From a bacterium (GTDB taxonomy: Bacteria; UBA9089; CG2-30-40-21; SBAY01), in contig JBFMDD010000018.1 in assembly GCA_040754115.1 (NCBI GenBank), positions 1 to 45,484 of the forward strand: a stretch of DNA of 45,484 bases, in the 5' to 3' direction. The notes beneath the pieces were generated by a model. It searched no databases. It had not been told where the DNA came from and was given only the letters and a program-made list of their open reading frames with translations. Position numbers and translations under genes: made by a program. This document shows, in pieces, positions 16,318-33,106 of this stretch. Each line of letters begins with the position of its first letter. Position 1 is the stretch's first letter.

Positions 16318-17355
16318 TCACACTTCATTCTTCAAATACTTTGCTGCATCTTCTGGTGGAGTTGGGTTAATAAAGAATCCAGAGCCCCACTCAAATCCAG
16401 CTATATCAGTCAATCGTGGTATTAATTCAATATGCCAGTGGAAATGTTTAAGTTCATCACGGTTAATTTTACACGGTGCAGTATGAAGCATGTAATTAAA
16501 AGGTGGGTTATTAAGCACCTTATCTACCTTTTTGATAATTCCACCTAACACTTCTGCTAATGCCATTACTTCATGTCTTGTAATATCAGGAAATGTTGGG
16601 TCATGTACCTTAGGTAAAATCCAACATTCAAATGGAAATCTGGATGCAAAAGGAGTAATAGCAATAAAATCATTATTTTCCATTATTACCCGTTCTTGGG
16701 AATTTTGTTCTTCACGGATAATATCACAAAATACACACCTATCTTTATATTTAAAATGCTGGAATGCAAAATCCATCTCCTCTCGCACATTTGAAGGTAC
16801 AATAGGAGTAGCAATCAACTGAGAATGAGGATGCTCTAAAGAAGCACCAGCTTTAACTCCATGATTTTTGAATATAAGGATGTATTCAAATCTTGGATCA
16901 CGATTTAGGTCAATTGACCTATCTCTATATGCCCAGAGTATTTCTTCTACTTGTGAAAGCTCAAGTGAATCAAAATCTAATGTGTGCTTTGGAGTTTCAA
17001 TAATCACCTCATGTGCTCCAGTACCACTTATCATATCAAACATACCTATCCCTATTTTCTCCAGTTTACCTTCTATCTGCAAGGCAGGAAATTTATTAGG
17101 TACTACCCGTAACCACCAATCAGGGGTATTAGGTTGACTACCAGGTTTTCTATAGGCTAATATCTCAGGTGGTGTTTTAGATTCATTCCCTTCACAAAAA
17201 GGACAGTTATTAACTGAAGAACTATTAGTCTCTTCGTTCTTAAGTTCTTTAGTTTTTGAGTTCTTTAGTTCATAAAAATCTGATGGTCTTTTCGCTCGCT
17301 CCGTAGCGATAATTACCCACCGATTACTTACAGGGTCTTTGCGTAACTCTGGCAT
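16318..17355 (-). CDS. galT: Galactose-1-phosphate uridylyltransferase-type (HIT-superfamily) nucleotidyltransferase
   Basis: 345 aa. It has LRKDPVSNRWVIIATERAKRP, the zinc motif CPFCEGNE and the active-site HPHSQ (SLEHPHSQLIATP). Confidence 0.85.
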   Translation of the reverse strand: MPELRKDPVSNRWVIIATERAKRPSDFYELKNSKTKELKNEETNSSSVNNCPFCEGNESKTPPEILAYRKPGSQPNTPDWWLRVVPNKFPALQIEGKLEKIGIGMFDMISGTGAHEVIIETPKHTLDFDSLELSQVEEILWAYRDRSIDLNRDPRFEYILIFKNHGVKAGASLEHPHSQLIATPIVPSNVREEMDFAFQHFKYKDRCVFCDIIREEQNSQERVIMENNDFIAITPFASRFPFECWILPKVHDPTFPDITRHEVMALAEVLGGIIKKVDKVLNNPPFNYMLHTAPCKINRDELKHFHWHIELIPRLTDIAGFEWGSGFFINPTPPEDAAKYLKNEV

Positions 17356-17408
17356 AATTCTGCTCCTATTTTACCTATCGTTTATCCATTATTAACAAAA
17401 AATTAACA

Positions 17409-17614
17409 TATACTGGACACTGCCATTAACTGAGCTATTTAGGGACGGTTTATTTTCATCGTTTTCACAGTGATTTCTTTTGGAAATTAGAAATTAGGTA
17501 TTCACTTCTTTCCCCAATTTCTAATTTCTAATTTCATATCCATTTTTTAACCGCAAGCTTTCACGCTAAAGTGAACCGTTTCTAAAATCGCAATTTGTAA
17601 CGGTGTTGAGTATA
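17409..17614 (+). mobile_element. MITE family B, full-length copy (206 bp)
   Basis: TATACTGGACACTGCCATTAACTGAGC ... GTAACGGTGTTGAGTATA. Near-identical to 10231-10436 apart from the number of central GAAATTA/AATTTCT heptamers. Confidence 0.8.
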
Positions 17615-17665
17615 ACTTAGTATATCAGAAATTGTTTAAAATGTCAACATTTTTAATTTTTTCTC

Positions 17666-17694
17666 TTGCCTTTATCAATATTTTCTGGTATAGT
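17666..17694 (+). promoter_or_regulatory. Promoter candidate for the HD-GYP gene (TTGCCT - 17 nt - TGgTATAGT)
   Basis: -35 at 17666-17671 and -10 at 17689-17694 with an upstream TG. The heptamer hairpin 17701-17834 would form the 5' UTR. Confidence 0.4.
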
Positions 17695-17700
17695 ATTAAG

Positions 17701-17834
17701 TAGAGAGTAGAGAGTAGAGAGTAGAGAGTAGAGAGTAGAGAGTAGAGAGAAATCAATAATAGGGAGTTAGATGAAAATCTCTCTACTCTCTACTCTCTAC
17801 TTGCTACTCGCTACTTGCTACTTGCTACTCGCTA
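17701..17834 (+). repeat. Heptamer-repeat hairpin: (TAGAGAG)x7, 29-nt spacer, then (CTCTCTA)x3 and (CTYGCTA)x5
   Basis: Counted directly: 17701-17749 is seven exact TAGAGAG units and 17779-17834 is eight units. CTCTCTA is the exact reverse complement of TAGAGAG. Confidence 0.92.
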
Positions 17835-17860
17835 CTTCTTTTTAAAGTGGGTGATGAGTT

Positions 17861-30233: not shown

Positions 30234-30521
30234 CGTTCTTTTTAGGAAAGGGGGTAGTTTTTGGGGGTGAATTTTCTAAAAACTGCAAAACCGCCTATCT
30301 CTTTGAATTTGAACATCTCCTTTTTATCCTTACTTTTTATTTTTCTTAATCTTTCTTTTCCCTCATCTCTCCTTTGAAGACTAACTAAAGAAAAAATAGG
30401 TAACTTCATAAAATAAGTAAGAGAACAATTCTTATGCAGATACTCTGGAGCATCAAGACTTACCACCAATATATCCTCATCAACAAATAAAATTATTCCA
30501 TCTATACTCCAGTGGGGTATA

Positions 30522-30658
30522 AATTGTGATTATTTAAAGTAATCGGTAATCAGGTAATCAGTATAATCGGTAATTTGAGATAGCAGGCTACTGCTTGCTC
30601 TTTACCGATAACCTGATAACCGATAACCTGAGTTGATAGTAACAGGAAATCACAAAAT
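30522..30658. repeat. Hairpin / MITE-like element with terminal inverted repeats (AATTGTGATT / AATCACAAAAT) and opposed (GGTAATC)n / (GATAACC)n arms
   Basis: Read directly: AATCGGTAATCAGGTAATCAGTATAATCGGTAA ... TTACCGATAACCTGATAACCGATAACC. Confidence 0.65.
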
Positions 30659-30758
30659 ATGCCTCTCTAAAGTATAATTACCCAATTACCTGGTTACCAA
30701 TTGAGTGAGCCTAAAGCTTTCACACTAAAGTAAACCATCAAGATATTTTGAATAAAAA

Positions 30759-31868: not shown

Positions 31869-31909
31869 AATTTTAATCCTTACCTTTGTTATCACTGGTA
31901 AATTTTTAT

Positions 31910-31965
31910 CTCTCTACTCTCTACTCTCTACTCTCTACTCTCTACTCTCTACTCTCTACTCTCTA
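31910..31965. repeat. Heptamer array (CTCTCTA x8; TAGAGAG on the coding strand) spanning the stop of the upstream rSAM gene and the gap before the next
   Basis: Counted directly as eight exact units. The stop codon (31949-31951) and the last ~5 codons (..VESRE) of the 31949-33106 ORF lie inside the array. Confidence 0.92.
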
Positions 31966-33106
31966 CTTTACTTGTATCCCATATCCCTGGTATCGATTCC
32001 TTGCAATATGTGCATTTACCATCCTGAATGTTATTCTCAACTACCTTAAACCCAAACCTCTTTATTATTATTTTTGAACAGTGATGACAATAGGTATTTT
32101 CTCCTGAATGACCAGGAACATTACCGATGTAGACATATTTTAATCCTGAAGAAAAAGCTACTTGTCGAAGTGTCTCTAATTTGTGCACCGGTGTTGGAGG
32201 TAAATGTTCTAATTTATAATAAGGGAAAAATCGGGCAAAATGTAATGGAACATCATCCCCTAATTCATTTTTAATCCACTTGCACATCTTTTTGGTTATC
32301 TCTAAATCATCGTTTTTGGTAGCTATTATTAAAGTAGTAATTTCTAAATGTACACCTTCTTCTTTTAATATTTTTAGTGTATTTTTAACCGGCTCAATCC
32401 ATGCTGATGACATTTGATTATAATATTCATCCGTAAAACCTTTCAGGTCAATATTAGCTGCATCTATATATTTACATAATTGCCTCAATGGATTTGGATT
32501 GATGAAACCATTTGAATGATAAGCATTCATCAGTCCCTTTTCTTTTGCTAACATGGCTATATCAAGCATATATTCAAAGAATATAGTTGGTTCTGTATAT
32601 GTAAATCCGATTGAGGGGCATTTCTTAGATAAAGCGGCTTTTACTACCTCCTCATGCCCGATAGGGAAATTCATTGTCTCTTCTGGTTTTGATTGTGAAA
32701 TCTGCCAGTTCTGACAGAACTTACATCGTAAATTACAACCAGCAGTAGCTAATGAGAGAATCTGTGTTCCTGGTAGGAAATGGGAAAGAGGTTTTTTCTC
32801 AATTGGGTCCTGATGTATAGCACATGGATTGCCGTATACAAGAGTGGTTAATTTCCCTTTTTGATTTTCTCTTGCTCCACAAAAACTCCTCTCTCCTTCA
32901 CGAAGAAGACATCTTCGTGGACAGAGTTGACACTGGACTCGCTGATTTCCAAATGATAGATAATACAGTGCCTCTTTGGATGAAATATATCCTTTTTTAC
33001 CTGAAATCTCTTTCCCTTCAGTGGTGTTATGTAAAAAAGGAGTACTCGTTAATGCTAAACTTAATATAGAGATCTTTTTTAAGAACTCCCTACGAGTCAA
33101 TTTCAT
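31949..33106 (-). CDS. AmmeMemoRadiSam-type radical SAM enzyme (AmrS-like) with an N-terminal twin-arginine signal-like sequence
   Basis: GCNLRCKFCQNW (CX3CX2C), a conserved N-terminal CQLCPRRC...FCGAR block and a C-terminal CHHC...CTYC tail. The N-terminus is MKLTRREFLKKISILSLALTS. There is no in-frame ATG between residue 1 and about residue 145. Confidence 0.8.
   Translation of the reverse strand: MKLTRREFLKKISILSLALTSTPFLHNTTEGKEISGKKGYISSKEALYYLSFGNQRVQCQLCPRRCLLREGERSFCGARENQKGKLTTLVYGNPCAIHQDPIEKKPLSHFLPGTQILSLATAGCNLRCKFCQNWQISQSKPEETMNFPIGHEEVVKAALSKKCPSIGFTYTEPTIFFEYMLDIAMLAKEKGLMNAYHSNGFINPNPLRQLCKYIDAANIDLKGFTDEYYNQMSSAWIEPVKNTLKILKEEGVHLEITTLIIATKNDDLEITKKMCKWIKNELGDDVPLHFARFFPYYKLEHLPPTPVHKLETLRQVAFSSGLKYVYIGNVPGHSGENTYCHHCSKIIIKRFGFKVVENNIQDGKCTYCKESIPGIWDTSKVESRE

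Follow-up and report, generated by a model that had tools for sequence, protein, structure and literature searches.

This locus raises the question of whether a long hairpin of tandem heptamers, lying between the promoter and the ribosome-binding site of an HD-GYP gene, is a dedicated regulator of that gene or one copy of a dispersed repeat family. The window (the whole stretch of DNA analysed, 45,484 nt) belongs to a genome assembly, G000, of 2.86 Mb in 365 contigs, with a GC content of 34.7% and a completeness of 94%. The family of this organism comprises six genomes only, and the relatives are labelled Candidatus Desantisbacteria or 'Nitrospirota'. The features of the locus are collected in Table 1.

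Table 1. Positions of the features around the HD-GYP leader within the window.
Feature	Position	Strand	Basis
MITE copy with a GAAATTA heptamer hairpin at 17483-17535, in the leader of the galT-like gene	17401-17615		TRF, repeat search
Divergent promoter TTGACA-17-TGaTATACT of the galT-like gene (16318-17355)	17619-17647	-	scan, 11/12 matches
HD-GYP promoter, -35 hexamer TTGCCT	17666-17671	+	promoter scan and conservation
HD-GYP promoter, extended -10 TGgTATAGT	17686-17694	+	promoter scan and conservation
Left arm, (AGTAGAG)7.3, i.e., seven exact TAGAGAG from 17701	17699-17749	+	reading, TRF, pattern search
Loop, 29 nt, purine-rich, sequence unlike the loops of other family copies	17750-17778	+	reading
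Right arm, inner part, three exact CTCTCTA	17779-17799	+	reading, pattern search
Right arm, outer part, five degenerate CTTGCTA/CTCGCTA	17800-17834	+	reading, TRF, fold
T-rich tract TTCTTTTT, directly 3' of the stem	17836-17843	+	reading; 7/8 T
Shine-Dalgarno (SD) GGTGAT	17850-17855	+	complementary to AUCACC of the 16S 3' end (contig C254)
HD-GYP (HD_5) c-di-GMP phosphodiesterase gene, 329 aa	17861-18850	+	domains, motifs

The long heptamer-built hairpin before the HD-GYP gene is real. Direct reading recovered the composition given in the initial annotation, that is, seven exact TAGAGAG units (on which a pattern search agreed), a 29-nt spacer, and a right arm of three exact CTCTCTA units and five CTYGCTA units, the latter in the order CTTGCTA, CTCGCTA, CTTGCTA, CTTGCTA, CTCGCTA. 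The ATG was also found where it had been placed, 26 nt from the right-arm end. TRF described the left arm as 7.3 copies of AGTAGAG with 100% matches and the right arm as 8.3 copies (17779-17836) with an additional 21-nt super-period. Head-to-tail 7-nt units beyond chance, as in heptanucleotide long simple sequence repeats (LSSR) and STRR-like repeats, are therefore present, seven of them exact and eight inverted; the three-unit tandem pattern matched 12 times in the window, with 0.00 matches expected by chance (100 shuffles). The second site of this pattern in the window is a solo (CTCTCTA)8.3 array at 31910-31967, which on the minus strand encodes the final residues (..VESRE) and the TAG stop of a radical-SAM gene (31949-33106) and ends 14 nt short of the start of the next gene at 31895.

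RNAfold of the plus strand gave -83.1 kcal/mol with z = -9.1, and none of 200 shuffles was equally stable. The minus-strand RNA folds at -75.5 kcal/mol and the single-stranded DNA at -42.6 kcal/mol. The stem had been expected to reach at least 21 bp and to be extendable with mismatches or G-U pairs, and the fold agrees on both points, since it contains an uninterrupted inner stem of 25 bp, continued by five shorter blocks, four of 6 bp and a terminal one of 5 bp, each set off by an A/G mismatch. Against TAGAGAG, each outer CTTGCTA or CTCGCTA unit forms one A/G mismatch and a G-U or G-C pair, and three outer units contribute a G-U pair each. The inverted-repeat search returned 59-nt arms with 83% complementarity and at least seven alternative registers, in line with the register slippage anticipated from the unequal arms of seven and eight units. 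The Rfam search of the leader gave no family at the gathering threshold, with sub-threshold eukaryotic miRNA precursors (generic long hairpins) only, and a known cis-regulatory RNA family such as a riboswitch was rejected on this result.

The identity of the gene was confirmed by Pfam HD_5 and HD domains and by the motifs HDIGK and HHERMQGKGYP (HHE..GKGYP). An exact-protein look-up with the window's HD-GYP gene returned no match. An HD-GYP query gave 19 matches in the 2.9-Mb genome, more distant HD-domain paralogues included, with similar numbers in the relatives, which makes a large c-di-GMP phosphodiesterase-like repertoire relative to genome size.

The promoter proposed upstream of the hairpin, TTGCCT-17-TGgTATAGT (17666-17694), was found by the promoter scan and is conserved in eight lineages, namely G000 to G005 and the public contigs L065 and L070. 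Among them the -35 is TTGCCT or TTGCTT, the 17-nt spacing is invariant and the -10 is TGgTATAGT, TGgTATATT or TATAAT. The block common to all eight reads TGTCAA..TTTT..C(C)CTTGCYTTT..N..(TGg)TATAGT/TATAAT, and the rest of the intergenic DNA is unalignable. At the usual distance of 6-8 nt from the -10, transcription of the HD-GYP gene is predicted to start at about 17699-17702, which are the first base pairs of the stem. With a conserved promoter and a predicted start at the stem base, the hairpin would form the 5' end of the HD-GYP mRNA, and it is very probably transcribed as its 5' leader. The position assigned to the hairpin, between promoter and SD/ATG, was thus borne out, the promoter being backed by its conservation in eight lineages. 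The SD sequence GGTGAT is also found in G001, G002, G004 and L070. Neither the right flank nor the promoter had a match when metagenomes were scanned for these two patterns.

The conserved TGTCAA block corresponds to the -35 of the minus-strand promoter of the galT-like gene, whose G002 version is a perfect TTGACA-17-TATAAT. Positions 17619-17694 of the window hold, in consequence, two back-to-back divergent promoters (galT-like on the minus strand, HD-GYP on the plus strand) that are conserved in the family, with -35 boxes 18 nt apart. The MITE in the leader of the galT-like gene has many copies in G001, G003 and G005, at about 71-96% identity (72-84% for most of those listed). For this copy and another one at 30503-30690, the best counterparts in other genera (G001, G003, G005) are 88-98% identical, and the genes flanking these MITEs share just about 75-84% DNA identity. 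Recent spread or exchange of these MITEs between genera is suggested by the comparison.

Since a T-rich tract follows the stem, a leader attenuator was considered, in which the long stem and UUCUUUUU would act as a partial intrinsic terminator that yields a leader RNA of about 145 nt and limits read-through into the HD-GYP gene. Stem stability is very high, the tract begins at the stem end with seven T in eight positions, and this terminator-like arrangement exists on the plus strand only. The terminator scan of the leader called none, a result to be read with the limits of the scan, which are exceeded by the stem and loop of this hairpin. The stem base, however, is AU-rich and carries mismatches, and no upstream sequence is able to form an anti-terminator. 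In addition, the family copies located inside operons have weaker T-tracts (4/8), so termination is not a family property. Attenuation is accordingly a very unlikely account of the element.

The comparison of orthologous leaders, which the initial annotation had proposed, covered HD-GYP orthologues with 78-89% amino acid identity from the five same-family genomes and from public contigs. The leader of G000 (TAGAGAG hairpin, 160 nt, -80.8 kcal/mol) has no counterpart built of the same word. In the G002 leader, TTATAAAG/TTTATAAAG units form a hairpin whose apex has TAGAAAG/TAGGAAG units (-63.5 kcal/mol), the G001 leader carries one made from GACTGAA/GACAAAA words (255 nt, -136 kcal/mol), and the G004 leader one homologous to that of G001 (102 nt, -36 kcal/mol), while the G003 leader has ATTCGGG-type arms around a MITE (315 nt). 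The leaders of G005 (38 nt, AAGTAGAGATTACTAATCATCAGAATCAGGAGG..) and L065 (28 nt, ATAATTGATAAAAAGGTGGTAAAAAATT) are empty, L065 being the closest promoter-sharing relative with 87% amino acid identity, and that of L070 consists of 63 nt without word repeat. A structured insert is therefore present in the same gap of about 30 nt in five of the eight promoter-sharing lineages, as four different elements, and in each of these five the sense RNA has a stabler fold than the antisense RNA. The other relatives (L063/64, L067, L068/69) have a different upstream gene and neither such a promoter nor a leader hairpin.

Absent from L065, G005 and L070 and replaced elsewhere by unrelated words or a MITE, the TAGAGAG array is not a conserved leader element; this is the outcome that the initial annotation had named as speaking against its proposal. 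Removal of 17699-17836 from G000 leaves ATTA+TTCTTTTTAAAGTGGGTGATGAGTT, which resembles the L065 leader, so that a short ancestral leader appears to have gained the hairpin cleanly, by insertion or by expansion. In G005, whose site is empty, AGTAGAGA is already found at +1, possibly a seed or a microhomology. G003 and G005, sister taxa with 100/100 support, differ by an insert at this site, and because their branches are very short the G003 insert is recent. The HD-GYP tree is a polytomy.

Word-hairpins were also seen at other places around the orthologues. In G002 (contig C61; L023/L042), hairpins of the same TTATAAAG/TTTATAAAG word lie on either side of the HD-GYP gene, one of them in the leader and the other in a 128-nt spacer before a His_Phos gene, which overlaps the HD-GYP gene in other genomes. 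In L068/L069 (JGI 3300032112, Logan SRR1986370), a tRNA gene sits directly upstream of the HD-GYP orthologue and has a GTAGACA/GTAAGCA word-hairpin on its upstream side.

The same word is widely dispersed in G000. The genome contains 156 exact period-7 arrays of at least three units, whereas arrays of periods 4, 5, 6, 8, 9, 10, 11 and 12 number 50, 14, 18, 23, 5, 1, 0 and 1, a genome-wide excess of period 7 over its neighbours that is characteristic of LSSR or STRR-like repeats. TAGAGAG/CTCTCTA accounts for 63 arrays and 372 units, and is the second commonest heptamer after GAAATTA. A census of hairpins with a minimum arm length of 18 nt, a minimum of 72% Watson-Crick pairing and a loop no longer than 80 nt gave 395, 212 of them with periodic arms, and the period was 7 in 169 of these 212. 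There are 46 TAGAGAG arrays of at least 3.5 units, with inverted units within 110 nt in 21 cases. The purpose-built, gene-specific regulator implied by the initial annotation does not agree with this result, the HD-GYP copy being one array among 46 and missing from three promoter-sharing relatives.

Most of these arrays lie between co-directional genes, and they often start 0-13 nt past the stop codon of the upstream gene. As is typical of the class, they are mainly intergenic, with only 12 of the 169 period-7 hairpins and 5 of the 46 TAGAGAG arrays inside called ORFs. The purine arm is in sense orientation relative to the genes in 17 cases and antisense in 6 (28 and 8 when one-sided cases are added). 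The right arms of the family copies are short, with tttctac, ttgctac and tcgctac as common odd variants, followed by CTTCTTAAAAAG and an SD, and the loops are unrelated to one another in sequence. The word is lineage-specific, since the pattern matched 215 times in G000, 13 times in G003 and 17 times in G005, and the TAGAGAG pattern search of G001, G002 and G004 gave no matches. Five arrays (C5:9167, C99:2053, C291:6292, C294:26790 and C328:3153) occur in a second context, with 'ttctcctgaaaatagga' on the 5' side and 'aaaatctttcctcccc..ttcctattttc' on the 3' side, and look like a separate MITE-like element with an internal array.

Several general explanations for the hairpin class were discarded. 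Mobilisation of the TAGAGAG family by a REP/RAYT system was ruled out, as no intact Y1 (RAYT/IS200-type) transposase was found in the 94%-complete genome, which holds two PF01797 fragments (ORFs of 41 and 53 aa). The TAGAGAG hairpins are not MITEs either, given their unrelated loops and the lack of a consistent target-site duplication. On the gene strand, the stem mismatches of the period-7 hairpins comprise 31 G-U and 36 A-C (p = 0.63), so there is no signal of RNA-level selection, and such selection on the class was rejected. As a general rule, hairpins do not mark transcription starts, since a promoter-like site lies directly upstream in 4 of the 169 period-7 hairpins and in 4.7% of control positions. 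The only other strong promoter-hairpin pairing is a TAGAGAG-family hairpin in the leader of rpmH (L34; C32:18260-18372), right after a perfect TTGACA-17-TATAAT promoter and in the orientation opposite to that of the HD-GYP copy.

The 138-nt element at 17699-17836 probably arose recently and specifically in this lineage, as a copy of a family of heptamer hairpins that is dispersed and prone to slippage, and is likely a tolerated passenger. Members of the family consist of (AGTAGAG)n, a variable loop and a few degenerate inverted units. In this locus the copy would occupy a former leader of about 28 nt, immediately 3' of the -10 of a conserved sigma-70-type promoter, and the HD-GYP mRNA would have at its 5' terminus a stem-loop of very high stability, separated from the SD by 13 nt. 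It may have been copied from another locus or have grown from a pre-existing AGTAGAGA seed at +1, and recent unit expansion by replication slippage would explain its near-perfect arms. For the HD-GYP gene the element would most likely be a tolerated passenger. Three observations weigh against this explanation. The occupancy of the gap in five of eight lineages could mean that a hairpin is favoured and not merely tolerated, the sense bias of the family (17 to 6, or 28 to 8) is not predicted by pure neutrality, and the sense fold is stabler than the antisense fold in each of the five occupied leaders.

A tolerated passenger may still have side effects on the mRNA. 5'-Terminal stem-loops without a single-stranded 5' tail shield mRNAs from 5'-end-dependent decay, and perfect duplexes of at least 20 bp are substrates of RNase III, whose gene, rnc, is present in G000. 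The HD-GYP leader could thus be protected from 5'-end-dependent decay by its terminal hairpin, the 25-bp perfect duplex could be recognised by RNase III, partial termination could occur at the T-tract that follows the stem and the spare eighth unit of the right arm could weakly occlude the SD. All four effects would change with the unit number, so the expression level of the HD-GYP gene could drift; no evidence was found of selection for such drift at the HD-GYP locus.

Changes in unit number were found within the class, away from the HD-GYP copy of G000, which is a further property shared with LSSR and STRR-like repeats. The 3' end of contig C331 (8740-8950) and the 5' end of contig C53 (1-204) are identical over 204-211 nt except for one TAGAGAG (seven units and six, respectively), which points to population heterogeneity or to assembler ambiguity at the array, and the homologous leader hairpins of G001 and G004 have very different unit numbers. 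That the HD-GYP hairpin itself is an assembly artefact, with its copy number collapsed or expanded in a short-read MAG, is extremely improbable. Many TAGAGAG arrays do sit at contig ends and the C331/C53 locus was assembled in both forms, so the unit counts of the assembly are not fully reliable. Nevertheless, both the perfect array of 49 nt and the complete 134-nt structure are internal to the longest contig and have unique flanks, they are shorter than typical reads and near the 127-nt overlap length of the graph, and many internal loci as well as five other assemblies show the same architecture.

The effect of the unit number was evaluated in silico by folding the leader with a varied number n of left-arm units. 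The minimum free energy falls from -30 kcal/mol at n = 0 to -91.5 kcal/mol at n = 7 and reaches a plateau of about -100 kcal/mol from n = 8, because the right arm holds eight units. The predicted probability that the SD is unpaired is 0.16 at n = 7 and 0.42 at n = 8, the lower accessibility at n = 7 being due to the pairing of the spare eighth unit, CGCUACUU, with AAGU/GGUG. The SD-occluding mini-hairpin alone has -5.7 kcal/mol and is no better than shuffles, so that SD occlusion was rejected as a robust switch and is a weak model prediction. Judged from these folds, from the C331/C53 locus assembled with six and with seven units and by analogy with a known heptamer leader hairpin, tuning of HD-GYP expression by the unit number is plausible.

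These data bear on the proposal of an adaptive tunable leader, i.e., a contingency-locus rheostat in which the hairpin would be maintained to set the stability or translation of the HD-GYP mRNA and the gain or loss of units would switch expression. An experimental precedent exists in the hmw1A 5' UTR of Haemophilus influenzae, where the left arm of an RNase III-cleaved hairpin consists of ten ATCTTTC units and expression falls with the unit number (Rapun-Araiz et al. 2025, PMC12721329). The predicted gains in stability and SD accessibility with n, the presence of rnc, the hairpins of differing words in the promoter-to-SD gap of five out of eight lineages and their uniformly stabler sense folds are also consistent with it. 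Against it stand the empty sites of L065, the closest promoter-sharing relative, G005 and L070, and some 45 further loci with the same type of element, most of them within operons. Moreover, the mini-hairpin over the SD is as weak as in shuffles, the leaders of the relatives show no SD occlusion in their folds and the genome-wide G-U/A-C asymmetry was not found. We therefore regard a leader maintained for tuning as unlikely.

The resemblance to hmw1A goes as far as a 5'-UTR heptamer tandem repeat that makes up the left side of a long imperfect hairpin, transcribed in hmw1A and predicted to be so from the conserved upstream promoter in the HD-GYP leader. The unit number sets the expression of hmw1A and, with an RNase III gene present, could do so by analogy here. 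However, the right arm of the hmw hairpin is a unique G-rich segment and that of the HD-GYP hairpin is made of inverted units. The hmw repeat is also confined to its locus and conserved, natural strains having no fewer than 11 units, whereas the HD-GYP element is a member of a dispersed family that is absent from close relatives.

On its sequence traits, the hairpin is a member of the heptanucleotide simple-sequence-repeat or STRR-like class, which is already known, and not a dedicated regulator. The classical STRR repeats of cyanobacteria are heptamer arrays, but the element is not an STRR in the strict cyanobacterial sense, since its unit is TAGAGAG and not that of STRR1-3 and its host is not a cyanobacterium. 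Heptanucleotide LSSR of prokaryotes were surveyed by Mrazek et al. 2007 (as summarised in PMC4679880), and related cases are the paired convergent GGGAATC arrays of Xanthomonas, with 70-75 inverted pairs per genome, and the GGGGAYT arrays of Nostoc/Anabaena (PMC4692102). The repeats of G000 share with LSSR the tandem 7-nt units with period 7 dominant genome-wide, the mostly intergenic location, often near the end of the upstream gene, the many inverted pairs capable of forming stem-loops, and a length and sequence that vary among close relatives. They differ in the host, an uncultivated lineage with relatives labelled Candidatus Desantisbacteria instead of Cyanobacteria or Proteobacteria. They differ also in the word, as TAGAGAG is AG-rich without G-runs and so has no G-quadruplex potential. 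Further differences are the strong asymmetry of the arms, the purine arm being long and perfect and the pyrimidine arm short and degenerate, and the bias of the purine arm to the sense strand.

Two other types of repeat were compared. The TAACTGA direct repeats of marine Beggiatoaceae, some Cyanobacteria and Bacteroidetes (MacGregor 2015, PMC4679880) are likewise heptamers with an embedded stop codon, located near start codons, with indels in 7-nt steps between strains, as in the TAGAGAG class. With 2-6 units their arrays are short, and inversion is very rare among them (one indirect repeat), whereas TAGAGAG arrays form hairpins. The TAACTGA arrays also stop 1 nt short of the start codon, apparently in place of the SD, whereas the HD-GYP hairpin precedes a normal SD. 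REP/BIME elements and MITEs resemble the TAGAGAG family in being palindromic, intergenic and dispersed, and in their frequent location between co-directional genes. Such elements can stabilise the upstream mRNA or undergo processing. The TAGAGAG family differs from REP/BIME in that G000 has no intact RAYT/IS200-type Y1 transposase, only two fragments, and from both REP/BIME and MITEs in its arms of tandem words in place of a fixed palindrome, its unrelated loops and the lack of a clear target-site duplication.

The repeated occupation of the gap between promoter and SD was evaluated against the background of the genome. In G000, a period-7 hairpin occurs in 8.7-14% of intergenic regions and in 18% of divergent regions of at least 200 nt. 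Leaving G000 aside, a word-hairpin is present in the gap in three of six other lineages compared with a baseline of 9-18% (p of about 0.02-0.08), a baseline that counts whole intergenic regions while the slot is a gap of about 30 nt. Neighbouring orthologous spacers of the syntenic block are mostly without word-hairpins, in a small sample. These figures are suggestive, but not compelling, of a permissive or favoured slot. A stronger version, in which selection or a self-renewing DNA mechanism (slippage together with arm-to-arm template switching) would keep a 5'-terminal stem-loop in a maintained hairpin slot while its 7-9-nt word is repeatedly replaced, seems quite unlikely. If it were true, word-hairpins would be a general, evolvable rheostat of mRNA stability or translation in this lineage, and the unit imbalance of the arms, seven to eight here, would set SD accessibility.

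With a recent family copy, probably a tolerated passenger, as the preferred explanation, the locus alone reveals no new regulatory system for c-di-GMP signalling. Heptamer arrays have been known for decades from cyanobacteria, Xanthomonas and sulfur bacteria, and to our knowledge their origin and function are so far without explanation. The locus offers a clean natural series in this respect, in which one conserved promoter and SD are combined with three empty leaders, with different word-hairpins inserted at the same few bases in four lineages and with two sister genomes (G003/G005) between which the insert is the sole difference. It is therefore a convenient test bed for the effect of such hairpins on mRNA fate and for the birth of the hairpins themselves.
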